Source of the DNA: Elsinoe ampelina
Lineage: Eukaryota
Assembly: GCA_010093995.1 (NCBI GenBank)
Contig: ML992502.1
Location: 1,458,635 to 1,522,634, forward strand
Length of the DNA: 64,000 nt
Direction: 5' to 3'
Positions within the stretch are counted from its first letter, which is position 1, and each line of letters starts with the position of its first letter. Below are positions 6,040-64,000 of the stretch, one piece after another. The translations under genes were made by a program, and so were the position numbers. The notes beneath the pieces were generated by a model. That model made no database searches and was not told where the DNA came from. It worked only from the letters and a program-made list of their open reading frames with translations.

Positions 6040-8472
6040 TCATGGTCTCCCGTCATCTAGAATATTTCCAAAGATTCCCAACCGATCCGCAGACCAGTCA
6101 AAGCAAGTTTTGTTCATTAGTTTGCAATCAGCAAAGACACAATCTCGGACGATATCCTCATTGATGTGTGTAGAACCCGTGCACTTGGATGGGAGAGAAA
6201 GGCCGAGAGAAGGGGGGAGTGGAGGGGATTATATACTGCATTTGGTAGGATGGGAGGATATTAGCAGGGGAGGGATGGGGCGGAACAAGGATGAGGGGGT
6301 GAGTCATTAGGCCGGCCATGTGTGCATGAGATGGACGTGGAGTCATAGAGTGAGTATCTGGGTGACTTTGATTGATTGATGCTGTGGAAGACAGGAGACT
6401 AGACTTCGACGCATTGGTAGACTTTCTTGCCGACTGTGATGGTCGTCTTACCGCCGGCTGGGGAGGTGTCCTTGGTGTCTGATCCAGGAGTGGTGCCTGC
6501 GCCGGACGCCGAGCCTGAGCTTGTATCTGTGTTCGCTGAATCGCTGCCGTCCGATTCACTCCCAGAACCGGATGAGGAGTCGGACGAGGAGTCGGATGAG
6601 GAGTCTGAAGAGGAGTCACCTGTGCCGGTGCTACCTCCGGAACCAGTGCTGCCAGTACCGGAGCCACCAGTGCCTGAGCCTGAGCCGCTGTCGCTGGTGC
6701 TGCCGGTATCGGTGCTTCCTGTACCGGCGCTGCCTGTGTCGGTGCTTCCACTACCAGAGCTTCCACTACCAGAACTTCCACTGCTTCCACTCCCAGAGCT
6801 GCCACTCCCAGAGCCCGCACTTCCCCCAGCACCACCACTCGCCGTCCCATTCCCCTTCGGCTTCGGCTCCGCGGTATCAAAACTCTGATAATCCACCGCC
6901 CAATCCGTAGTGCCCCCAAAGTTCAACCCCCTCCACTTCTCCGTCCTGCTATTCTTGACCCCCGTATCCATGTACCCCAACCACCAATTCCCAATCACCG
7001 CAATCTTGGTGTCGCTCTGCGCATCATACAGCCTCCTCGTCCTCGTCCCATTGGCTTCGGCGGCCGCGAACTCCCTCTCCAACTCTGCCTCGGCGATAAC
7101 GCCGCGTTCTTGTGTGCACTGCCCGATAGGTTGCGTGGCGTTGATGGTGTACCTACAGCTCGGACCGGTGCAGGTGGGATCGATCATGCTGAACCCTCTG
7201 GCGTAGGACGTGACGCCGACAATGACCTTGTTGCTCTGCGCGCCGGCCTTGGTGACCAGAGCAAGAGACTCGAGCGTCTCGGTCATGTTGATCATGCTGC
7301 GGAGACAGTCGCCGTTGGGGCAGCCGGCTTGAGACCACTTGCTTCCGTAATCGAAGAGACCATGGTAGTCGTAGGTCATGAAGACGATGTAGTCTACCAC
7401 TTCGGAAATGGGACCGACGGGGAAGCTTTGCAGGTAATGGTAGCCGGCGGGCATGGCGACGGACACGGACTTGGTGGAGAGTTTGGATTTGAGAAGCTTG
7501 AGGAAGGCGAGATAGTTGGTGCCTTCGTCTGCGCCGCCAGGGGGGATGTTGGGCATGTCGGGGGCGCCGGGATATTCCCAGTCGATGTCGACGCCGTCGA
7601 GACCGTGGAGGTTGATGAAGTCGGCGATTTTGCTGGCGGCTGTTTCGCGGTTCTCGGGCTTGACCATGTCGCGGAAGATTTGGTAGGTGGCGGGCTCGGT
7701 GGAGAAGGTCCAGCCTCCGAAGGTGAGGATGCGCTTGTGCTTCTTCATGCCCTTGAAGCGCTCAAATTGTGAAGTGATGGCGGAGATATTGACCTCGAAG
7801 GAAGGAGTGAGAAGGGCAAAGGAGTAGTGAATGTGGTTGTATCGGACTTGAGAGATTTCAGTCACGTCCATGTTCAAGCAAGGACGTTTGGCATTGTCGC
7901 CCTGGAAGTATGCGATTTTCCTGAATGATGCAGGAGCTACATTGTTGTTGGTGATGTTGGTACCGCAGTTGGAAATGCATCCGCTGGTTCCAGGTGCAGC
8001 GCCCGCTGGTGGCAAGGTGCAGTGCTCCGGTGTGATTCCGCAGTATCCAAAAGCACTGCAGCAAGCGTTCAGTGGGCATGGGTTGAGATCCTCGAGCTTC
8101 TGACCAGGCTTGAGTACTGAACCCGCCATGAGCGGACCGCATACAGTGCCAGGTACAGAAGCTGGTAGTGGTGGCTGACCCGGACTGACACACATGTTGA
8201 TGCCAGCCTGGAGGCCACTACATCCGAGCCATCTACCAAATGTGAGAATGTGATCCCTCAAAGTTCCACAACTGTACTTACCCCCATGTGTCCTTGTTGT
8301 ACGTCTCCAGTTGAGCTACGGTCACATTGGACCTCCCAGAGATTGCTCCGCAAGAGTCACCTGGTACGACCTTGTAGACACTGCATGCGGTGCTATTGAC
8401 CTGTCGAGGGTACAACGTGGTCGCTGTAGCAGATGTAGCTAGCACCGCTAGGGATGCCAGAGAGATGAGCAT
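6040..8472 (-). CDS. GH18 chitinase with LysM and CBM18 (hevein) domains (subgroup C, killer-toxin-alpha-like), with Gly/Ser-rich tail
   Basis: Signal peptide from ATG 8472; intron 8233-8281; LysM YKVVPGDSCGAISGRSNVTVAQLETYN; CBM18 CPLNACCSAFGYCGITPEHC; catalytic DGVDIDWEYPG. The 3' end is either stop 6399 or, via an unconfirmed intron, a Cys-containing exon ending 6040. Confidence 0.92.
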
Positions 8473-20326: not shown

Positions 20327-23300
20327 ATGGCTGACGAGACGATCGATAAGCTCATCGCCCTCGAGGTCAAGGATGGGAACAATGTCGTCCGACTTTGCGA
20401 GGGGAAGAGCTTTGGTGCTCAAAGGAGCGTTGCTGGAGAGCTCGTCTTCTCTACGGGCATGGTGGGTTATGAGGAGTCCATCACAGACCCTTCATATCGC
20501 GGGCAGATCCTGGTTATGACCTATCCCCTCATTGGCAACTATGGAGTACCAGACAGAGATGAGAAAGACCCTCTGCTCAAGGATCTCCCCGCCCACTTCG
20601 AGGCCAGTCAGATCCACGCAGCTGGACTGATCGTGGCTTCCTATGCCGGCGAGAACTACTCACACCACTTGGCCACCTCTTCTCTGGGAAAATGGCTCAA
20701 GGAGCAGAACATTCCCGCCATCTGCGGTGTCGATACTCGAGCTCTGACCAAGAAGATCCGAGTCAAGGGCAGCATGCTTGGCCGACTCCGACTGCAAATT
20801 CCAGACACACCGAACGGAATCCCAGCCATCACTAAACCCCTCCAGAACCTGGTAGCTGGGCTCGCCAATGGCATCAACGGAGGGTCAGGTTACAATACAC
20901 CAGTCTCGAGAAATGAGTTCGAGGAAATCGCTTGGTCGGATCCCAACATCGAGAACCTTGTCGCCGATGGTTAGCATTGCCCATTCGTCGGGTCTACATT
21001 TTACTAACAGACGTCAGTCTCTATCAAAGAACCAAAAGTCTACAAACCCGATCCCTCGACCGCACTCAAGCACCCATCTGGCCGACCAGTCAAGGTCGTC
21101 TGCGTCGACGTTGGTCTCAAATACAACCAGCTGAGATGCCTCGTTTCTCGTGGAGTCGAAGTTGAGGTCGTTCCTTGGGACTATGACTTCCCTCGTCTGG
21201 CAGGGAAAGAGTACGATGGTCTGTTCATCTCCAATGGTCCAGGAGATCCTGCAAAGATGGAGACAACAGTCGGCTACATTCGAAAGGCACTCGAGGAAGC
21301 ACGTATGCCAATCTTTGGTATCTGCTTGGGACACCAACTTCTCGCCCGCGCAGCAGGAGCAGAGACAGTCAAGATGAAGTACGGCAATCGTGGACACAAC
21401 ATTCCTTGCACAAATCTCCTCTCTGGCAGGTGCTACATCACCTCTCAGAACCACGGGTTCGCGGTCAACGCTGAAACCCTGCCCGAGGAATGGAGTGAGC
21501 TCTTCGTCAACGCAAACGACGGCAGCAACGAAGGTATTCGACATGTCACGCGACCATACTTCAGTGTGCAGTTCCATCCCGAAAGCGCACCCGGTCCTCA
21601 TGACACTGAATTCCTGTTCGACGTCTTCATGGATACAATCAAGAACTGCATGAACGATCCAAGGATGATGCAGCAAGCAGTGAAGTTCCCTGGTGGCGAC
21701 GTAGTCGAGAACGAGAAGCTTCACCCCCGAGTCAACGTGAAGAAGTGCCTTGTGCTTGGAAGTGGCGGTCTCAGTATTGGACAGGCCGGCGAATTCGACT
21801 ACTCCGGCTCACAAGCCATCAAGGCTCTCAAAGAGGAAGGCATCTACACGATTCTGATCAATCCCAACATTGCCACTATCCAAACCTCGAAGGGACTTGC
21901 AGACAAGGTCTACTTCTTGCCAGTCAACGCTGATTTCGTCCGCAAGGTCATCAAATCAGAGCGTCCGGATGCCATCTACTGTACATTCGGTGGGCAGACT
22001 GCCCTCTCTGTCGGTATCCAGCTTAAGGATGAATTTGAGGAACTCGGTGTCAAGGTTCTCGGCACACCGATTGACACAATCATCACCACGGAGGATCGAG
22101 AGCTATTTGCCCGCAGCATGGAATCTATCGGCGAGAAGTGCGCAAAGTCCGCGTCGGCCACCACCATGGAAGAAGCCATGGCTGCTGGCCAATCCATCGG
22201 CTTCCCACTGATCGTCCGCGCGGCTTATGCTCTTGGTGGACTCGGAAGTGGTTTTGCTGAGGACGAGACCCAACTCAAAGAGCTGTGCGAGAAGGCCTTT
22301 GCAGCAAGCCCCCAAGTTCTCATTGAACGCAGCATGAAGGGATGGAAGGAGATTGAGTACGAAGTCGTACGTGATTGCAGGGACAATTGTATCACCGTGT
22401 GCAACATGGAGAACTTCGATCCCCTGGGAATACACACTGGGGATTCGATCGTTGTGGCACCTTCACAGACTCTATCCGACGAAGACTTTATGATGCTTCG
22501 CTCCACAGCTGTGAACGTCATCCGGCATCTTGGAGTGGTTGGAGAGTGCAACATCCAATATGCTCTCAACCCTGACAGCAGAGAATACTGCATTATCGAG
22601 GTCAATGCTAGGTTGTCAAGATCTTCAGCTCTGGCATCCAAGGCCACCGGCTACCCTCTGGCTTTCGTCGCTGCCAAACTCGGTCTCAACATTCCTCTCA
22701 ACGAGATTAAAAACTCTGTCACAAAGAAGACTTGCGCCTGCTTTGAACCGTCGCTCGACTATGTTGTTGTCAAGATCCCCAGATGGGACCTGAAGAAGTT
22801 CACTAGGGTCTCCACTCTCCTCGGATCATCCATGAAGAGTGTGGGTGAAGTCATGAGTATTGGCCGCACTTTTGAAGAGGCTATTCAAAAAGCGATTCGA
22901 TCCGTCGATGTCAGCAATCTCGGCTTTGGACCTACGAATGACGCCCTGATGTCTATCGATAGCGAGTTACAGACCCCTTCAGATCAGCGCATGTTCGCCA
23001 TTGCCAATGCTATGCACAGCGGCTACACTGTCGACAAGATCTGGGAGCTGACTAAGATTGATAAGTGGTTCCTCAGTCGTCTCAAGGGGCTCAGCGACTT
23101 CATTCTCCAGCAGAATGGTCTGAAGGTTGATAGAATCCCGTTCCATGACTTCCGCAGGGCGAAGGAGCTGGGTTTCTCGGACAAGCAGTTGTCAATGTTC
23201 TGGTCGACAAATGAACAGACAGTTCGCAAAGCAAGACTTGATCTCGGCATCTCTCCTGTGGTCAAACAGATTGACACTGTCGCGGCAGAGTTTGACGCCT

Positions 23301-26028
23301 TCACCAATTACCTATACCTGACATATAATGGCACAGAAAGCGACATCAAGTTTAATGACCAGGGAATCATGGTGCTCGGATCAGGAGTTTACCGTATCGG
23401 ATCATCTGTTGAATTCGATTGGTGTTCAGTCACTACTGTGCGAACGCTGCGCGAGAGTGGCTACAAGACGGTCATGGTCAATGTAAGTTCTGGTTAGCAT
23501 GGTTTTGACCCAGCAACAGTCGACTAACGTGATTGCTCAGTACAACCCAGAGACAGTGTCTACTGACTACGACGAAGCCGACCGCCTTTACTTTGAGAAC
23601 ATCACGCTCGAGACCGTCATGGACATCTACGAACTCGAGCACTCCAGTGGTGTCATCTTGTCGATGGGTGGTCAGACTCCCAACAACATCTCACTCCCAC
23701 TCCACCGCCTGCATGTCAAGATTCTCGGCACATCGCCAGAGATGATTGACACCGCAGAGAACAGATACAAGTTCTCCCGCATGCTTGACCGCATTGGTGT
23801 AGATCAGCCGCAATGGAAGGAACTCAGCAATATCGACGAAGCGAAAAAGTTCTGCAACGATGTCAAGTACCCTGTGCTTGTCCGACCTTCTTACGTCTTG
23901 TCCGGTGCAGCCATGAACACAGTCTACTCCGAGCACGACCTTGCTAATTACCTCAATCAAGCCGCCGAAGTCTCACAGGACCACCCAGTCGTAATCACCA
24001 AGTACATTGAGGGAGCAAAGGAGATTGAGATGGATGCTGTGGCTCAGAATGGTCAAATGATTGGCCACTTCGTCTCCGAGCATGTCGAAAACGCAGGTGT
24101 GCACTCTGGAGATGCCACCTTGATCCAGCCACCGCAGGACTTGGACCCCGAGACTGTCCGCCGCATTGAGGATGCGACAAGGAAGATTGGCAATGCTCTC
24201 AACGTTACCGGGCCATACAACATTCAGTTCATCGCCAAGGACAACGAGATCAAGGTCATCGAGTGCAACGTCCGCGCTTCGAGGTCGTTCCCGTTCGTCT
24301 CCAAGGTCACTGGACTGAACCTGATTGACATGGCCACCAAGGCTATTGTTGGGCTGCCTGTCATGGCGTACCCTCCCGTCAACATTCCTGCAGACTATGT
24401 GGGAGTCAAGGTCCCTCAGTTCTCCTTCTCACGTCTCTCTGGCGCTGACCCAGTTATGGGCGTAGAAATGGCGTCCACCGGTGAGGTTGCTTGCTTTGGT
24501 CGCACCAAGTATGAGGCGTATCTCAAGGGTCTCATCTCGACTGGGTTCAAGCTGCCAAAGAAGAACATTTTGCTCTCCATCGGATCCTTCAAGGACAAGA
24601 GCGAGATGTTGCCGTCGATTCAGAAGCTGGCCAAGCTCGGGTACACACTTTTCGCGACCGCCGGTACTGCCGACTTCCTCGAAGAGCATGGCGTCCCTGT
24701 CAAGTTCCTGGAAGCCTTGCAAGATGATCAACAGAGAGCTGAGTACTCACTCACTCATGCTCTTGCCAACAATCTCATCGATCTGTATATCAATTTGCCC
24801 TCGGCGAACAGATTCCGCAGACCTGCGAACTACATGAGTAAAGGGTACCGGACTCGTAGGATGGCTGTCGACTACCAGACCCCTCTGGTGACGAATGTCA
24901 AAAACGCAAAGATCTTGATCGAAGCCATTGCCCGGAACTACGACCTTGCCGTCAGCCGCGTGGACTTTCAGACCTTTGCCGAAATGCCCTCCGCGCCCCT
25001 CGCTGAGGTGCCACAGAAAGAGAAACGCTCGCTGAAAGACATGCTGCGCAATTCGCCATTCACTGGTCGAGACATTCTCTCCGTGTCCGAGATCAGCAAG
25101 TCTGAGCTCCATCTGCTCATGACCATTACTTCGGAGATGGCACTTGGGGTGGAGCGCCAGGGCAGTCTCGACATCCTCAAGGGCAAGCTTCTTTGCTTGA
25201 TGTTCTACGAGCCTTCGACTAGGACTTCGTCGTCCTTTGATGCTGCCATGAAGCGTCTCGGTGGGCAGACAATGATGATCAATGAATCTGTTTCCTCGAC
25301 CAAGAAGGGAGAAACCTTGGAGGATACTATTCGCACTCTTGACCAATACGGAGACGCTATTGTCCTTCGTCACCCATCGGACGATAGTGCCGAGATAGCC
25401 GCAAAGGCAGCTGACAATCCGATCATCAACGCTGGTAACGGATCTAGGGAGCACCCCACCCAGGCATTCCTTGATCTGTACACGATGCGCCAGGAACTGG
25501 GTACCGTGAACGGGCTGACGATCACTTTCGTGGGCGACTTGAAGTATGGCCGCACGGTCCACAGCTTGTGCGAACTCCTCAAGCACTACAAAGTTCACAT
25601 CCAGCTCGTATCTCCGTCGGCTCTCGCTATCCCACCCAAAGTCCGCAAGGCACTGGATAGACGAGGACAGTTGGAATTGGAGACTGAAAAGTTGACGTCC
25701 GAGATTGTCGCCAAGTCTGATGTTCTGTACATCACTAGAATCCAGAAGGAGAGATTCGAGGACGCAAGCCTATACGAGAAGGTGAAGGGTGAATTGGTCG
25801 TCAGTGCGGAGACATTGAGGTCGGCGAAGCAGAACATGATCGTGATGCATCCTTTGCCAAGGAACGAAGAGCTGAGCAGGGAAGTCGATGACGATCCCAG
25901 AGCGGCATACTTCAGACAGGTGAGTAGTCGGTTCATTATCGTGAGTTTGACAGTGCTGATATTCCCCGCAGATGAAGTACGGCATGTACGTACGCATGGC
26001 TTTACTGGCGTTGGTCATGGGGAGTTGA
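20327..26028 (+). CDS. URA2: Pyrimidine-specific glutaminase-carbamoyl-phosphate synthetase-aspartate transcarbamylase (URA2/pyrABCN), about 1847 aa
   Basis: GATase [10 protein letters not shown] and FSVQFHPE; CPSase [30 protein letters not shown]; ATCase [26 protein letters not shown]; introns 20970-21017, 23483-23540, 25920-25971. Confidence 0.97.
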
Positions 26029-27060
26029 TAAGGATAACAACCAAAAAAGTAGTTTGCTTTTGATAAAAGCAACGGTTACAAGGAGATGGTTCGGCACAGA
26101 TAGATGTCACCTTTACTGTTTCTCACGAGCGATGATTGATGTGCTCTGATGATATATCATGACTTGTAAAAAAAACCCCGACAGATGTTGATACCGTTCA
26201 GTGGTATTTACATTCGGACCATGCGTACGTTTGTACGCTATTATGTACAGATTACCCTATAGATTTATCGTTTCTCTTGCACGTGCGGATCTGTTTCGTG
26301 TGGAGTCTAAACTAGTGCGTGACCCCTATCCACTGTTTGAGGGCGCTCTTGGCCGCAATCTAAAAACAGAGATCCCGGCTCCAACCGACGACAATCGATG
26401 ACTGCAAAATTGTGGGGAAAGGGAACGAACCCGGTGGCGGCGGGCTTTGGTGCGAGCTCAAAGTTTTCATCGACGACGATTGCGTTATCTCGCTGCAGAA
26501 GCACGCCTATCAACGGCATTCCTCTACTTTAACCCTGTCTCTACCACTATCATACATCCTCCCGGCATTGTCAAGCGTGATCAGCTCTGCTGACGGGACT
26601 GATACCTCTCTGGAACCCCCCCCCCTCATTTCCAAACGACTGGGAGTAAGACCGACCGATAGGAGATAGGCCCACCACGCCAGCCCTGCACTCGAACCCC
26701 CTCTTTTTGGCCTCTCGCGTACTCGCACCCTCGATGCACGGCGCCGCGGGCCACGGCTATCATCGAATCACACTCGCTGCTGGCCAGCAAGCCCAGCATG
26801 TGCGGACAAGTCTGCAACGACTGGCGGGGGCCCAGCAGCCCAACGCGGTGGTAGTATCAGTAGTGCTACCATCAGGAGCTCGAGCTCCAGCTCGAGCTGC
26901 AGCGACCTCTTCGAGACATGTCCATCCAACGGATCATGCATCAGCCACTAAGCCCACTCCTCCTGCGGGACGGTTCAGGCACACGCACACGCCTACGACG
27001 TCGCCGTCCAGCGGACGCAGGTCCCCTTGGTCGCCGACCCCATCTAATTCTCCCTTGGGC

Positions 27061-34872: not shown

Positions 34873-36069
34873 ACCTAATTTATAAAATGCTAAGCTTATG
34901 TAATCTCGTAGCATTTCGGATAGTGCTACGTAATATTAATACGTACTAGATTATTACTAATAAGTGTTAATATCTTTATAGTATAAGATAGTTAGTTATA
35001 ATAAGTTACTTTATACACTTATAGATTTAGCTTATATATAGCTAAATCTATAAACACATGTAATAAGAATAGTAGGCGTAACTCGCGCACCTAGTTTTAT
35101 AGGGCTTTTTAGTTTAAACGAGCTACCTAGTCTTAGTATAGAACTAAAAAAAAGATCTTATAACTTTTTATAGAGGTAGAGAAGAATTTACTACCTAATT
35201 TTATATTAGTAATAGCACGCTAAATAGGCACTAGATATAGAAGATTAATATATTATTATAACTGTCTAAAAGAGCTCTATCTAGTAATATAAGATTTATA
35301 GTAAGAAACACTAGATCTAGCCTAGTAGGCTTACTAGTAAAACTCTATTATTCTCCCTAGACCTCTACCTAGCTCTTTACTTACTATATAGAGGCTTATA
35401 GTATATATAGCCTATATAGGAGGCTAGTTTAGAAGCTACTCTTAGAGTATATACTAGCTATATAGCCTAATATAGCTTCTAGAAGGCGCTATAAGTAGTT
35501 ATTAAAGCCTTATATTAAAGCTATATATATCGTGATATAGAGAATACCTATCTAACTAAATAGTCTATTAGTAGTAGAACTGATTACTATTAAGCCCTAG
35601 GCATAAGCGCTACGTAGAATATTTAAGTATATTATATAAGTAGGACTAGCCGCTACTAAGTGCTACTCTAATACTAAGCTCTTATAATTGCCTCCTTCTC
35701 TAGGAGAGCTATTCTTAGCTCTCGACCGGAAGTGTATAATATATAGTATTATTCGGAAGTAACATAAGTATAAGGTAGTTAAGGCATTTTTATAAAGGCC
35801 TTATATATGTCTTATATAATGTCTAGTAGTAGTAGTCCTAGGAATCTAGTTCCTAGAGAGGCGTTTATTTAGTCGCTATAGCGCTAAAGCTAATTAGTAG
35901 TAACAATATTACTTTTCTTAGAATTCCTAGTAGTATCGTAGGAGATATACGCCTTACGCTAGTAGCTATAACAAAGATATAGTGTACTAGAGGTTAGTCT
36001 ATATAATCTTATTATTCCCTCTTATATTTTTCTTTTCTACCTAAAACACATCTATATTTTATTAACCTC

Positions 36070-55980: not shown

Positions 55981-56794
55981 ATAGTTATACTACTTCTTTC
56001 TCTAGAGAAGTCTACTTAATAGAGTCTATCTCTATAATATTGTTTATACGAGGTATAGGCGCCTCGCTAATAGAGTTCTAGTTGTCTATAGGGTCTAATA
56101 GATTACAACTATAGGGAGTAATTAGAACTATTAAAGCCTTATATTAAAGCTATATATATTATAATATAGAGAATGCCTATCTAACTAAATAGTCTATTAG
56201 TAGTAGAACTAATTACTGTTAAGCTCTAGGCGCAAGCGCTACGTAGAATATTTAAGTACGTTACGTAAGCGGGACTAGCCGCTACTAAGTGCCGCTCTAA
56301 TACTAAGCCCTTATAGTAGTAGAGAAAGTATTTTTAGAATTTACTTCTCTTAAGCTAGTATAGAAGCTATAGAGTAGCTAGAGATATATAGAATATATAT
56401 ATAGGTAGCTAATTAGTAGTACTAGAAGTACGTAAGTATAAAACTATATTATAAGCTTAGTTTAAATACTTCTAAAAATATAGAATTTACTAGTTAAATA
56501 GACTATTCTAAAAGAGCTTTTACTAAGCTATAGCCTACATACGCTTCTAGTACTACTTTAAAATTAAGTGGCAAATTCTCCCCTACCCCCGTAAAAAGTC
56601 GTAAGACCTTTTTTTGGTTCCGCGCCAAGACTGGGTGGCTCGTTTGAACTGAAAAGCCCTGTACCTTCCACCGCGAAGCCCCCTGATCTATAACACCACT
56701 GTCATCGCGGAACACCTCTGCTCGAGGCGTTGTCACCTCTTCACGACTGTCACCCTCATGACTAGGTGGAGGCATCTGCTCGCGTGTAATTTCG

Positions 56795-59445
56795 ATGGAA
56801 GGCGCCGAGATGGGAGATTCGGAGATGTCGGGACTGAGGTCTTCCGTCTCAAAGGTCGCGTCAGAACTTGAAAGCGATGTGACTCTGGACAGCGATGATG
56901 AGATGGAACAGGATTCGTTAGCTGCGATGGACATCATGTTTGACACGTCGCACCCGGTGTTATACGACCGCAAGAATCACCAAGAGATGACTCGGCAGCA
57001 TGAACAATGGTCGCGGTATGCATGAAACACAAGTGGAGGAAGATAGCACTAATGGCAGCATAGATTCGCACAGGCTCACCTCAAAGAACATCTTCGCCAG
57101 CTTGAACCGTTTTCATTCCTACCATCTTTCAAAACCTTGCAGGCGTGGATTCTATGGCAGATCAAAACCAGGAGGGGCAGATTCGAGAGAAAATTAGGAA
57201 GCGTACTGTCAGCAAGATTTGGCATTGTACACAAAGGAACATTCTCAAAGGCTGCCGGCAGCAGCTGACTGAGGCAGAGCGGAAGGTCATGTCGGACGTA
57301 AGTCATACGACTCCGCTACATGGTTCCGCGAGCTGATGAACAAGTGGATTATGAAGGTCCTCCCGCGCAGGAAAATGTGTAGTACGAAAAGACTAGCAAA
57401 GGCTGTGGCAGGCCCCGAGACTGCAGCGGATCTCGTCGTATACCTTTGGGCGCATGATGAAGACGAGATGCATCCAAGGATGAGGCTGCAGCTGTCTCTT
57501 CTACTGCTCATTCTACTATACAATGGATTGCGCCCAGGCGAATTCATGGAATCAGTCCACTACCCGGATTCTAATGAAGGACTTTTGTACGGCGACTTTG
57601 TCTTGATCTTGGTCCGGAATGCTCATCGAGACGATCTACGTTGGCTGCTAGAGGTCCGGCTGCGCAACAGGAAGTGGAGACGACACGACGAAGGCCTCAA
57701 GTCAGTCTGCCAAGAAGTTTCCGCATCCGTGGATTTGCTGACATACGTAGCGAATGGCACCTTCTAAAAATGGATAGTAGGAGGCCTCACCTATGCCCCG
57801 TCAGCCATTACATTGGGTTGGCTCTGGCCGACAATGCACTTGAAGGCATCTCGTCTGTCAGTGAGTTGGAGCGCGTGAGGTTGTCCGATACTGCCGTGAG
57901 CACCAGAATCAGCTGCAAGCCAGAGATGGAGCGCATTCCCGTCATCCGCCGCATGACAGAAGAGACGCGGAGACAAGTCTCGGCAGACAAAATTATTCGA
58001 TATGACGCTTTTAAAGACATGCTACGCAGACTTGGTGCACGCGCGGGCTACACCATCCGATTGACACCATATCAATTCAGACGAGGACATGCAAACATTC
58101 TAGACTCTGCTGTAACGCCTGCAGAACGTCGGCAAAGAATGGGTCACGTAGACGACACTGCGTTGAACGCTTACATCTCTCAGATCTCCGGCGTCGACAC
58201 GCAAGCCATCATTCATGGTGAGGCTCAAGAGCAGGATCTGTTTCACAAAGCCCGCAGTATATCCTCCTGGCAAGATTTCGGTAGTTCTTCGTCGTCAACA
58301 TGGCAAGCGGGGCTGGAAAGGAAAGTCAAGCCAAGGAGAGATGCGTTGAAGCAGTTTCGGGAGGAGTCAGCATCACGACAGACGCATACGATTATCCCTC
58401 TTGACGATGTCAATGAGGAGGGATTGCCTCCTGGCAGCGATGGCCTGATCGTGCCCTTTGAACGACCAGCGCCATCTGTTTACATGCGTGCAATTCTTGA
58501 AGCGGAATCAGATAGGAAGCAAATTGTGGGCTTCATGGATGCCCAACCGAGCAGTCTAGAGGCCCGGATCTCACCCTTTGTCAGCCTGTCATCGACCTTC
58601 CACAATGAAACCTACTATCCTCGCACTAGACCTGATCGCAATGGAGGTTGTCCTCATTGCATGTACAAAGGACCACCAAGGTAACATCGTTCACTCCATA
58701 TCCACCATAAGCTAATTGTGGCAGTTCCAAGCCAAAGAGCTCGGCTGTTACTGCTTTCAAATTGCATCTGCTGCAGTGTCGATTGAAGGCTGACGCAAAG
58801 CTTCTTGATAGCTCGACAAATAATGTTGGACAACCACAGCGATGTGCATGGCAATGTTGTGGATATTTATTCACATTCCAGAAAGGTCCAGAGCATAAGA
58901 AGTTCGACATGGACCATCTCAAACGCCACATCCAGCGCGCTTGTTCGCAAGCCGATGGCCGCATGGCTTGTCTATGGACCGACTGCAAAGAATCCGTCCC
59001 AGACAAGTCAAGGCTCGAGAGCCATCTGGCTGAGGTACATTGCGGCACCTCTAGAGAGCACACCGCCAAAATAGAGTACTGCTTCCAGCACCGGGAGTAC
59101 TACTCATCAAAGGCAGCCTGGTCAGCACACTGCACCCAGCACTTGAAGGATATGGGAGACAAAGACTTATTCTGCGGAATTTTCACTCGGAGGGAGATCG
59201 TCATATGCGCCGGTATCTGTATCTTCTGTATTGGGGATCAGAGCCTGAGCGCAACTCAGCGATTCAGACAATTCTCCGCCTGGGACGACCTGAAGCTGCA
59301 CGTGGAGCAGCACATGCAAAATTTTGCGTCAAGGATTTGCCCGCATCCGCGCTGCACTACCAACCTGAGTACCAAGGGGGACGCGCAAGATCATTTCTGG
59401 AACGTGCACGGGATGCGAGCCTCCAAGACTCAATTGAACAAGTAG
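56795..59445 (+). CDS. DUF3435 tyrosine recombinase (Starship captain-like) with C-terminal Cys/His zinc fingers; apparent -1 frameshift near 57175
   Basis: YNGLRPGEF, LLYGDF, RNRK, HLCPVSHYIGLALADNA, LRRLGARAGY..LTPYQFRRG, RQRMGH...AYISQISGVDTQ; C2H2-like CLWTDC..HLAEVH and CPHPRC..HFWNVH; introns 57016-57063, 57298-57343, 57701-57750, 58681-58724. Confidence 0.88.
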
Positions 59446-59601
59446 CTGAGAGCATGTAGACCATCCTCATGCAACCGTGGCATCACGATTTCAGAGTCTA
59501 ACTGTGTGATTGGACCAATGCCCCAGATAAATAAATGATAAGGGCTACACCCCTATTCTTGCATCGCAGTGTAAGCGGGGTGATTGCTTATTGCTTTAGA
59601 A

Positions 59602-59607
59602 TATATA
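59602..59607 (+). promoter_or_regulatory. TATA-like element about 32 nt upstream of the tRNA 5' exon
   Basis: TATATA at 59602-59607; position only, function untested. Confidence 0.4.
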
Positions 59608-59638
59608 CAACTTTAATCACCCAGTTTCACATAACACC

Positions 59639-59829
59639 GGTTGTAAGTCTCGATCCAGGTGTACCTCCAAATTACGCTATCTGACTTAAGTAAGGCGTGG
59701 TGTAGGGGGTAAGTCTCTTGGCAGAAGAGGTTGCCGCATGACTGACCCCTTCAAAGTAGCATGCGACGTTGTGGAAACCTTGAGTTCAACAACCCCGTCT
59801 CGACCCCGGTTCGATTCCGGGCGCAGCCA
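59639..59829 (+). tRNA. tRNA-His(GUG) with two spliceosomal-type introns (59643-59694, 59709-59756) and one canonical intron (59775-59794)
   Basis: Joined exons give 71 nt: GGTTGCG/CGCAGCC acceptor stem, GTGT/GCAT D-stem, CGACG/CGTCT anticodon stem with loop TTGTGGC, CCCGG-TTCGATT-CCGGG T-arm, discriminator A; A-box TGGTGTAGGGG and B-box GGTTCGATTCC present. Confidence 0.85.
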
Positions 59830-59863
59830 GCTATTAGGCTCCTTCTGAGAAAGAAGGGACAGC

Positions 59864-59869
59864 TTTTTT
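59864..59869 (+). terminator. Putative Pol III terminator (T6) for the tRNA
   Basis: TTTTTT 35 nt downstream of the discriminator, after a short hairpin CCTTCT-GAGAA-AGAAGG. Confidence 0.6.
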
Positions 59870-60033
59870 AAGGGGCCGTCTCCTTCGATCTTGGTGTTTT
59901 GGTGGAGTTGGTCTTTTTTGGCGTAATTAGCGTAAAAAGTGTAAAATTGGCGGCGGCCGAGGCCGAGAGACAGGGCTAAGACACTCTCACGGCTAAGGAA
60001 GGCGGTAAGAAGTCGCGCAAGTGTCGCGTTTAG

Positions 60034-63000
60034 TGTTACTATAGAACGTAAGGTTATAGTACTCTATACCAATAAGATTAGCACACTAAATTAAGTAGTT
60101 ATAGATAATTAATCGCGTATGCTCCTTACTAGTCTCCTCTCTAGTGCTTTACTTACGTAGTTAAAGGATATATACGAGCCTCTAGAGATTACTAGTGACT
60201 ATCGGCTTAATACTCGAGGCTTTAGCCTTAACTAGATTAACTAGAGTATTAAGGTTAATAAGGACTATAAGCGATATATGTAGTGTATAGTAGCCTTCTT
60301 CTACTATCTCTATAAGCGCTTAATAATAACAACTCTAGCTCTTAATAACAGCTATAAGTTACTTACTTACTATAAGCTCTTTATTACTCTCTATATTCTT
60401 GCTACTAGCGCTAGCTATCGGCACATTACTACTAAGGTTAGTATAGTTATCTAATTAGTTAGCTAATTCTATAATGGGAACTATAAACTTATAGCTAGTA
60501 GATAGATGTTAGAGATATATTGTTCTAGCTATAATTCTACATAGTATATATAGTAGTAGTTTCTAACTCTCTATAGAGAGGTTAGAAATTTATTGTTATA
60601 TTTATATAGTATATACTTCTCCTCTATTACTTCTCTATCTTAGAGACATTATACCTACCTTATCTAGATACTCTATTACAATTTAAATTCCTCTTTAAAC
60701 TATAGTTAAGATAGCCTAGGTTAATAGTCTTAATATAGTTAGCTTAATAAAGGACTAACGGATTATCTACTATAGATACTATATCTACTAGCTTAGTAGA
60801 AGCTACCTAATTAGAACCTATTCTCTCTAATGTATCTAAGGAGAAGCTACGTACTACCTAAGAAGAGCTAGCTTAACTCCGCTAGAATAGAGAGTATATA
60901 GAGATCTAGAGAGCTCTTATAATTAAGTATAAAGGACCCCTTTAGAAGAGAACTTATATTAATATATAGGAATAGTAAGAGAAGTCTAATAATAATAATT
61001 AGTTATACTAAGATAGTATCTCTCGAGGAACTCCTAATCTAGATATCTCTCTAGAGATACTTTCTCTTTAGATTAACCTTAAGAAAGTATAAAAGCTAGA
61101 GGTACTAGAGAAACTAAAGAGATATATATACCTTACTAACGTAAAGGTATTTATCTAATTATACTACGCTATCTTTAGAGTCTATAAGTATATCTATCTT
61201 ACTAGTAGAGATTAAGCCTAGTTTATAGCTAGCTATCTAAATAGATTCCTCGCTATAATATAAGAGAGCTATATTAATAATATAAAACCTTAGGCTAAGA
61301 ACTAGAGCTACTTTTAAGAATAGATTAAAGATTGTATTATAGATAAGAGTAACTAAGCTCTAAAATATATCTAACTATTCTATAATAGTGCTTAGAGGTC
61401 GAACTAATTAGTTGCTAAGTTTGCCTAATACCTCGAAAAGTACGCTAAGAAAATTAGTAATACTACTATAGATAAGGCTTAGTTTATAAGCTGCCTCGTT
61501 AACGGCGTAAAGCCTATATATTAATAGAGCTATATAGCGCTCTAAGACTCTCTAAGGGGTAAAGACAAGGCTATCTCCTACTTTACTTATATTAAGAGTG
61601 TATTTAGAAGCTAAGCTATCTCCGAGATAATATATATCTCTTACTACTTTATAGATAAGCTAAAGAGAGGCAACTAGAAATTCTAGAATAACAAAAATAA
61701 GAAAAAAAGAAGGTTTAAAGACTCTACGTCCGGGGTTAATATAACTTCGATACTTTGTTGCCTTAACCTCTTAGAGGTAAAGTGCTATAGGTGTAAGTAA
61801 CTTAGCTATATCTGCCCTAACTACCCTTATAATAAGATAAAAAACTAAATACTCTAGCTATAGACCTCGCCTCTATATAGCTAGGAGTATCTAAAGGAGG
61901 TCCGCTACTAAGCTAACTAAGGATAGATATTTACCTTAGTTAGAAAGGTAAGGCTCTATCTACTAATTACGTAGCTATATCTCTTATAGATTTAGGAGCT
62001 AACATTTGTTTTATTAACTACTATTACGTAAAGGAGAAAGAAGTTCACCTATATACTAATAGCGTAATAAGAGTAAAGTCCCTTAACTAGTATAAGATAC
62101 ACTTATATAGATACTACTATCTTATAGTAGAAGCTACTAACTACTATAGCGTTATAAAGAAGATTCGCTAGTACTTCGAGTTAGTAGAGATAAAGAGATA
62201 TAACTTAGTACTAGGCTAGATATAGCTCTTTAGTATTAACCTAGATATCGATTAGTAAAGCTAGAGGTAGAGACATTACTCTACTAGCGTTAATATAACG
62301 CTCCTAATAGCGGAAGAATTTGCTAAGGAAATGTTAGAGTAGCTATAGTACTATATAGTTTTCTTAAATATAATCTATAAAGATAACACTTTAACGTTAT
62401 AGAGTAGACTTCTAAGCTAGCTCTATAACTTCTTAGATGTATTTAACAATAAGAAAGCTATTACTATACCTCCTCCGGCGCTATATAACTACTTAATCGA
62501 ACTTATTAAAGGGAAGTAACCTCTATAGAAATCTATTTACGCCCTCGTAGAGACAGAGCTAAGTACTCTTAGAGAGTACCTAGCTAAGAATTTAAAGCTA
62601 GGCCGTATTTGCTACTCTACTAGCTCTATAGAGGCTTCTATTCTCTTTATACCTAAGGCTAATAAGTCGCTACGTCTCTATATCGACTACTAAGGTCTTA
62701 ATAACGTCTTAGTAAAGAACTACTATTCTTTGCCCCTTATTACTAAGATACTCGATAGAATCTAGAGGGCTAAGGTATACTTAAAAATAGATCTTAGAGA
62801 TATATACTACTATATCTAGATTAAGGGAGGCAACGAATAAAAGATAGTATTCTAATATAGATATAGATATTTTAAATATATAGTTATACCTTTTAGCCTC
62901 GTAAACGCTTCTACTACCTTCTAGTTATATATTAGCTAATACCTCGATAGCTTAGTTAATTACTACTATATTATCTATATAGACAATATTCTTATCTACT

Positions 63001-63430
63001 TCTAAGATTCGTTATAGTACCGTAGGTATATTAAAGAAGTTCTAGTATAACTTAGGAAGTATCTTCTTTTTATAAAGGCTTCTAAGTACGCCTTTAAAGT
63101 TAAGGAAGTATAGTTTCTAGAATATATTCTAGGCCTCGAGAGTATCTCGATAGAGCTCTAGAGAGTTTAAGCTATTATAGACTAGCTAGAACCTACTTCT
63201 CTAAAAGAACTCTAGATCTTTCTTAGATTTATAAACTTTTACTAATAGTTTATTAATAGCTATATAGAAATAATAAGACCTATAATATAACTACTTATAG
63301 AGAGCAAAAATAGAAAATAGGTAGGTCCTTTCTACTTTACTAATAGTGCTAGGCAATTATTCTAACATCTTAAAGACTACTTTATAACTACTTCTCTTCT
63401 ATAGTTTTTTAACAAAAGTAAGAATATAAG
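60034..63430 (+). mobile_element. Gypsy C: RIPed LTR retrotransposon (5' LTR, gag, protease, RT), interrupted near 63430
   Basis: AT-rich from TGTTAC at 60034; gag knuckle KCYRCK*LSYICPNYP near 61780; protease LIDLGANICFI near 61982; RT LRLYIDY*GLN, IPFSLVNA, YIDNILIY near 62975-63000. Confidence 0.88.
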
Positions 63431-63432
63431 AA

Positions 63433-64000
63433 TTAGAGTAGTTAGTAGGTAGTAGGTATTCTACTACGGGTAGGGTAAGGTATTATTTCTTAGCACAGTA
63501 GGTATAGGTTAAGTAGAGTATTCTTAGTAGTAGGTATAGTAGAGGTTAGGTAGTAGGTATTTCGCGTGCCTAAATACTCTACCTACTATAACCTACGCCT
63601 ATACGTAGGTAGGTATTACGTAAGTAATAGAAGCTTCTCTTAATTCTCTAATATAAGACATTATATAGAATTTAAAATCAGGAAGAATAGTAATAATTAT
63701 AGTCTCTAATTATAGCATCTTATACGCTTAGTTATCGTATTTATAAATAGTTCTATCCTATGCCCTTATAGACAATCTTATACGCTTTACTAGAGGCTTA
63801 TTATTATTAATATTATTGTCCTTCTCGTAATTACTTAGAACAAAGTTACTCTCTTAAGAAGGTAGCTTAAGTAAGTTATCTACCTCGTCTATAGTAGTAT
63901 CTTTATAACTACTATTAATAGTATCTTAATAACTACTAGTAATAACATTGCTACTTAACAAAGAGGGACTTATTATAAGCTTTATAATAATAAGCTACTA
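63433..64000. mobile_element. Probable further RIPed element inserted into Gypsy C (runs off window)
   Basis: Pol similarity stops before RNase H; clustered GTAGG (RIPed GCGGG) short repeats resemble DNA-transposon subterminal motifs. Confidence 0.4.

Follow-up and report, generated by a model that had tools for sequence, protein, structure and literature searches.

In a 64-kb window of the Elsinoe ampelina genome (64,000 nucleotides, the whole stretch of DNA analysed here, with positions counted from its first letter), the forward strand carries a tRNA-His(GUG) gene at 59639-59829 whose cloverleaf emerges only once two short inserts have been removed. Upstream of it on the same strand, and ending 194 nt before it, lies a DUF3435 gene (56795-59445, +) that is expressed, possesses four RNA-verified introns and matches the Pfam family DUF3435 with an additional weak C2H2 zinc-finger region. 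Both this recombinase gene and the tRNA gene sit in a 4-kb island of normal GC content flanked by AT-rich blocks at 34001-56000 and 60001-64000 (26-35% GC, about 30%), a pattern typical of RIP-degraded repeats, and a segment of 187 nt at 56129-56315 is 90% identical to 35500-35686. According to excerpts from PMC11162782, Starship tyrosine recombinases are an innovation of the Pezizomycotina, which suits a filamentous ascomycete as the probable source of this DNA, and 5S rDNA, another Pol III gene, is reported as a Starship target; partial tRNA copies that might mark integration sites were looked for in the 64-kb window and none was present.

The far side of the tRNA gene is also occupied, since a repeat (59871-60036) begins at 59871, immediately past a T-run. 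The X6 and X7 RNA contigs match this repeat from 59871 on, with 11 of 166 and 3 of 98 letters differing, and their sequence 5' of that point is unrelated to the window, so the tRNA transcription unit abuts a transcribed repeat family. Elsewhere, the window, eukaryotic nuclear DNA whose genes have short GT-AG introns, contains a U4 snRNA gene (6054-6190, -), a full-length Rfam match without an intron that lies just downstream of a GH18 chitinase-like ORF, and a CPSase-ATCase gene of pyrimidine synthesis, similar to URA2 (21008-26060, +), in the form of two long ORFs whose overlap near 23490 points to an intron or a shift of frame. No U6 was found by Rfam in the 64-kb window.

Anatomy of the tRNA-His gene

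Exon 1 (59639-59642, +) consists of GGTT, tRNA positions 1-4 on the 5' strand of the acceptor stem as drawn by ARAGORN; by pairing with AGCC at 59825-59828 it supplies the first four of the stem's 7 bp. Intron 1 (59643-59694, +), 52 nt long and of spliceosomal type by its sequence, interrupts the acceptor stem between tRNA positions 4 and 5 and is followed by exon 2 (59695-59708, +), a 14-nt micro-exon that spans positions 5-19, holds the A box and lies within an RNA contig from run X3 described below. Intron 2 (59709-59756, +), 48 nt long and likewise of spliceosomal type, judged from its sequence and from an RNA joint, splits the D-loop after G19. Exon 3a (59757-59774, +), called by ARAGORN and also within the RNA contig, continues with positions 20-37 and the anticodon GTG at 59771-59773, and is separated by a third intron of 20 nt (59775-59794, +; ARAGORN) at position 37/38 of the anticodon loop, canonical for tRNAs and expected to be a substrate of the tRNA splicing endonuclease, from exon 3b (59795-59829, +), which supplies positions 38-73, the B box and the discriminator A at 59829. 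The remainder of the unit is a 3' trailer with a T6 run (59830-59869, +).

The spliced sequence has all of U8, A14, G18, G19, A21, U33, G53-T-T-C-R-A58 and C61, a D stem of 4 bp with two G-U pairs, G18 and G19 in the D-loop, a perfect T arm, and an anticodon stem of 5 bp with a single C27-U43 mismatch. The cloverleaf has a predicted energy of -24.3 kcal/mol versus -29.8 for the predicted minimum-energy fold; it is common for a tRNA cloverleaf not to be the minimum-energy fold. The discriminator is A73 and the letter at 59638 (-1) is C, so G-1 is not encoded; a GUG anticodon, A73 and an unencoded G-1 are in keeping with tRNA-His identity. Compared by eye over its 7 nt, the anticodon loop TTGTGGC is identical to the one in the yeast tRNA-His gene given in a passage of PMC11724288.

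Gene finders do not see this gene in its genomic form. ARAGORN, run on the whole unedited 64-kb window on both strands, with or without anticodon introns allowed, called 0 tRNA genes, and Rfam applied to the unspliced DNA recovered the T arm alone (59805-59821) as weak tmRNA matches with E about 3-4. When both inserts are cut out by their coordinates, ARAGORN calls tRNA-His(gtg) with 71 bases and the 20-nt intron in the anticodon loop; removing insert 2 alone gives no ARAGORN call, and removing insert 1 alone gives a tRNA-Ala(ggc) of 90 bases with a 49-nt "intron", which I regard as spurious. In a scan of the insert boundaries, 113 of 132 variants of insert 2 and 20 of 121 variants of insert 1 were still called, and since ARAGORN tolerates changes in D-loop length it does not fix where the inserts begin and end. 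Scans for related loci in metagenome collections, which may lack this fungus, returned 0 matches for a pattern of exon 2 followed by GT, a gap, AG and the start of exon 3, and likewise 0 matches for the 26-nt 3' end of the tRNA.

Splicing signals and the RNA joint

As the preliminary description had pointed out, both inserts open with GTAAGTCTC (59643-59651 and 59709-59717), which contains the 5' splice site GTAAGT, in agreement with GTRNGT, at 59643 and 59709, and both contain CTGAC followed by 9 and 10 nt, respectively, that end in AAG (59692-59694 and 59754-59756). The CTGAC motifs (59681-59685 in intron 1 and 59742-59746 in intron 2) fit the branch site consensus CTRAY, and place the branch A 10 nt from the AG end in intron 1 (59684 to 59694) and 11 nt from it in intron 2 (59745 to 59756).

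The DUF3435 gene next door provides a local standard of comparison in its four RNA-verified introns, all on the forward strand: 57016-57063 (48 nt, GTATGC..TAG), 57298-57344 (47 nt, GTAAGT..AAG), 57701-57750 (50 nt, GTCAGT..TAG) and 58681-58724 (44 nt, GTAACA..CAG). These have CTRAY branch sites, branch-to-AG distances of 8-11 nt and lengths of 44-50 nt, and the 52 and 48 nt of the two inserts match them in length, as far as four introns of one gene can serve as a yardstick. AAG had been called the rarer acceptor, which does not hold locally, where one of the four verified introns ends in it. The competing AGs that had been noticed in or beside each insert do exist, ending at 59690 and 59759, and the assertion that their use would break the cloverleaf applies to the first, which leaves no tRNA call, but not to the second, which ARAGORN still calls as tRNA-His. 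Intron 2 uses the first AG downstream of its branch site, and intron 1 would skip the AG at 59690, 6 nt from the branch A, in favour of 59694; the verified intron 57016-57063 does likewise, leaving unused an AG that lies 6 nt from its branch A and ending at the following AG, at 11 nt. The competing AGs and the AAG ends of the inserts thus follow local rules, because the verified introns of the neighbouring gene show the same.

One could argue instead that both inserts are non-canonical introns cut by the tRNA splicing endonuclease, like those of Cyanidioschyzon merolae, nucleomorphs and Archaea, and that their splice motifs are coincidental, particularly as endonuclease-type introns also occur at non-canonical sites, among them the D arm and 3/4 (parts of PMC4090602), and an RNA joint is silent on which machinery made the cut. 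Such introns were sought here as a bulge-helix-bulge, two 3-nt bulges containing the cut sites and set 4 bp apart, but the motif is absent at either insert: the best arrangement forms 3 of 4 central pairs and has flanking helices of 0-1 bp, whereas all 4 central pairs are formed in 630 of 3000 random pseudo-introns. Against coincidence stands also the double occurrence of GTAAGT, of CTGAC at the right distance and of a terminal AG, a combination that I roughly estimate would arise by chance about 3 times in 10 million per insert, and the size and signals of the inserts equal those of the verified mRNA introns of the neighbouring gene. The endonuclease explanation of both inserts was therefore rejected for want of the motif and is, in my judgement, highly improbable; it is well supported that the two inserts are spliceosomal-type (U2-type GT-AG) introns in a tRNA gene.

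The direct evidence comes from the contigs of four runs aligned to 57000-60200, runs that can be taken as RNA because all of them carry spliced joints of the neighbouring gene. One contig, from run X3 (153 nt, depth 2.8), covers 59666-59707 and 59756-59866 with a skip of 48 nt; its joint, 59707/59756 or equally 59708/59757 on account of one ambiguous G, corresponds exactly to 59709-59756 with GT..AG ends, and uses the AG at 59756, not that at 59759. Intron 2 is removed from RNA exactly at its GT..AG boundaries, which are the ones predicted from the cloverleaf beforehand. The same contig keeps the anticodon intron (59775-59794) while intron 2 is gone, starts at 59666 inside intron 1, of which it retains the last 29 nt, and breaks off at 59866, on the third T in the T6 run, so that the RNA 3' end falls inside the T-run. 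No contig of the four runs covers the exon 1/exon 2 joint, and removal of intron 1 is a prediction.

The joint is supported by this single contig from one of the four runs, the other three runs having no contig on the tRNA gene, and it is fair to ask whether there is a tRNA gene here at all or a chance resemblance joined to a spurious joint in a low-depth contig, all the more since ARAGORN with introns allowed is so permissive on the D-loop (the 113 of 132 variants above). Chance resemblance or artefact would nevertheless have to produce a joint exactly at boundaries predicted beforehand from sequence alone, in a 64-kb window on whose two strands the same program makes 0 calls; and the joint has flanks of 42 and 111 nt in the contig and shares 1 letter, which makes it unlikely that k-mer assembly or a template switch between repeats created it. 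I consider this explanation scarcely credible. In principle the contig could also stem from an expressed paralogue without the D-loop intron.

The preliminary description had further proposed that the two introns share a common origin or spread locally, and this has found no support: 1064 of 2000 shuffles reach the alignment score observed between the intron interiors, and beyond the consensus signals the introns have in common CTC alone, at a chance of about 1 in 64. GTAAGT occurs 10 times in the GC-normal parts, and only in these two cases is it followed by CTC. GTAAGTCTC is found 3 times in the window versus 0.91 expected, a number reached by 9 of 100 shuffles, and as a sign of something beyond chance this excess is weak; the RNA joint exactly on the predicted boundaries of intron 2 is the stronger sign. 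Propagated introns, either introner-like or duplicated within the gene, were set aside as unsupported, given the lack of likeness along their length, the shuffles that do equally well and the lack of any further copy of either intron within the 64-kb window.

Promoter geometry, termination and the precursor

All three elements of a type 2 Pol III gene, an A box at tRNA positions 8-19, a B box at 52-62 and a T-run, are present. The T6 run that had been mentioned after the gene exists at 59864-59869, 34 nt past the gene end, and this makes for a trailer that is long for a tRNA gene. A few nt before the run, the trailer can form a 6-bp hairpin (59841-59857, CCTTCT/AGAAGG) that resembles a bacterial-style terminator. 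T6 is likely the Pol III terminator, and the X3 contig, in ending inside it, favours Pol III over Pol II.

The A box TGGTGTAGGGG is intact in exon 2 (59698-59708) and, in line with the preliminary description, displaced by 52 nt from the mature 5' end, so that 59 bp separate it from nucleotide 1 of the mature tRNA versus the usual 7 bp (a start at tRNA position 8). The B box GGTTCGATTCC is at 59808-59818, which leaves an A-B gap of 99 bp, just outside the 31-93 bp of yeast quoted in sections of PMC11724288. With the 9-12 nt given in a portion of PMC3082873, taken here as the leader length, a start set by the A box is predicted at about 59679-59682, within intron 1. A TATATA, also recorded earlier, is located at 59602-59607, -37 to -32 from 59639, and represents a candidate TFIIIB/TBP site; extracts of PMC3082873 place the TATA-like elements of tRNA genes at nearly the same distance from the mature 5' end, -34 to -29, and also describe yeast TFIIIB as recruitable directly to a TATA box. 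The idea of a TATA-directed start fits the fact that TATATA tracks exon 1, not the A box, and a Pol III with a start set in this manner is plausible, to which the RNA 3' end lends weak support. The AGGTGTA singled out within intron 1 is indeed there (59657-59663), but this 7-mer is unsupported as an A-box-like element.

The displaced A box also invites a less generous explanation, namely that this is a decaying, redundant copy of a tRNA-His gene, in which intron 2 is spliced and TFIIIC on the A and B boxes makes Pol III start inside intron 1, with exon 1 left out of the RNA, no working tRNA as the outcome and normal genes elsewhere sufficing for the cell. The only RNA contig begins at 59666, within intron 1, whose 3' end it retains, and the predicted A-box-set start at about 59679-59682 also lies in this intron; RNA depth is low, the anticodon stem has its C27-U43 mismatch, and the setting is transposon-ridden and AT-rich beside the recombinase gene of a mobile element, where decaying copies are common. 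However, the contig extends 13-16 nt further 5' than a start set by the A box, and since it is short (153 nt) and anchored at the RNA 3' end in the T-run, its 5' end may only reflect read length. Decay would moreover leave to chance that GGTT immediately precedes a perfect 5' splice site and that an AG immediately precedes position 5, a placement that I estimate at about 1/128 x 1/16 with the branch site not counted, and would have to accommodate invariant tRNA nucleotides that are all intact and a TATATA at a normal distance from exon 1. I hold this explanation to be unlikely, if by no means far-fetched.

It is also conceivable that the tRNA resides in a Pol II transcript, either a non-coding host of its own or read-through from the DUF3435 gene, that is spliced co-transcriptionally and from which RNase P and RNase Z excise the tRNA. 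Pol II transcripts typically carry spliceosomal introns (as stated in part of PMC12530127), TATATA could serve Pol II as well, and the DUF3435 gene upstream shares the strand and is expressed, at a depth of 11-222 across the four runs. Yet the mRNA contigs of that gene stop at 59454-59488 in all four runs and none covers 59489-59665, the tRNA contig ends inside the T6 run and does not run on, and the A and B boxes are intact; a Pol II host seems improbable to me.

The best explanation, which I would give a probability of roughly 0.6, is that this is a nuclear tRNA-His(GUG) gene of a filamentous ascomycete-like fungus, in four pieces, with two U2-type spliceosomal introns and one endonuclease-type intron at 37/38; it would be transcribed by Pol III from a TATA-set start and may yield a working tRNA. 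TFIIIB on TATATA (-37 to -32), and not the displaced A box, would set the start a few nt upstream of exon 1, and a precursor of about 230 nt would end in the T6 run in the manner of Pol III. The spliceosome would then remove intron 2, probably first, and intron 1 after it, each intron being recognised as a unit across the 14-nt micro-exon, and the acceptor and D arms could form only after both spliceosomal introns are gone. RNase P, RNase Z, the tRNA endonuclease and ligase, CCA addition and Thg1, which would add G-1 opposite A73, would complete the maturation. The more specific proposition, of a working nuclear tRNA whose maturation takes two rounds of splicing by the spliceosome and one by the tRNA splicing endonuclease, and for which Pol III relies on a TATA-set start because an intron pushed the A box out of place, I advance tentatively and rate somewhat short of an even chance.

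Meaning and known systems

Reviews state as a rule that tRNA introns are removed by endonuclease and ligase and not by the spliceosome (in the relevant parts of PMC10275265, PMC13149111 and PMC12530127), whereas intron 2 is spliced in RNA here exactly at GT..AG. Should this more specific proposition be true, the supposed strict division of the two nuclear splicing systems according to RNA class would break down, and standard finders would overlook a whole class of tRNA genes in fungi and possibly in other organisms; if the gene works, the finders are blind to such genes, as ARAGORN and the Rfam models both missed this tRNA-His gene. A working gene would also place tRNA next to U6 among the few Pol III genes with spliceosomal introns, would imply that the spliceosome copes with a 14-nt internal exon and a coding first exon of 4 nt in a small RNA, and would offer a natural test of how TFIIIC, TFIIIB and TATA choose the start when the A box is displaced. 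It would, in addition, bear on how new introns arise, because a tRNA has neither a reading frame nor exon-junction surveillance to constrain where introns land.

In a literature search that mostly covered sources outside subscription journals, no report of spliceosomal introns in tRNA genes was found. The canonical eukaryotic 37/38 intron, as described in passages of PMC10275265 and PMC13149111, is of the same kind as the third intron (59775-59794) of this gene, and the other two are not. Non-canonical tRNA introns of the endonuclease type have been described for Cyanidioschyzon merolae, for cryptophyte and chlorarachniophyte nucleomorphs and for Archaea (sections of PMC4090602 and PMC3978253), at positions which include the D arm and, in Thermoproteales, 3/4 (PMC4090602, same sections). 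Those tRNAs resemble the present gene in having up to three introns, some of them in the D arm or close to the 5' end, and a cloverleaf that forms only after their removal. Their introns depend on a bulge-helix-bulge and have no splice-site consensus, however, and for the tRNA-His inserts it is the reverse.

The closest precedent is provided by the introns of fungal U6 genes. Introns of the mRNA type occur in U6 of Schizosaccharomyces pombe and other fungi and in U1, U2 and U5 of Rhodotorula hasegawae, and the S. pombe U6 gene, which is transcribed by Pol III, carries an intron that holds its B block (both in extracts of PMC5855946). Like fungal U6, the tRNA-His gene combines short GT-AG introns with a small structured non-coding RNA, a tRNA-like internal promoter and an upstream TATA; as in S. 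pombe U6, an intron alters the normal spacing of promoter elements, there through the B block; and in both the spliceosome acts on a transcript of Pol III, which is known for U6 and plausible, or probable, for the gene described here. The introns of U6 and other snRNAs were reportedly described by Tani and Ohshima in 1989 and 1991 and by Takahashi and colleagues in 1993 and 1996. Unlike U6, the host is a tRNA and not a component of the spliceosome, so the origin story told for U6, reverse splicing into an snRNA at the catalytic centre, is not directly applicable to the tRNA-His gene; and unlike U6, this gene has two introns of the spliceosomal type together with a third of another class, and an A box displaced from its 5' end.
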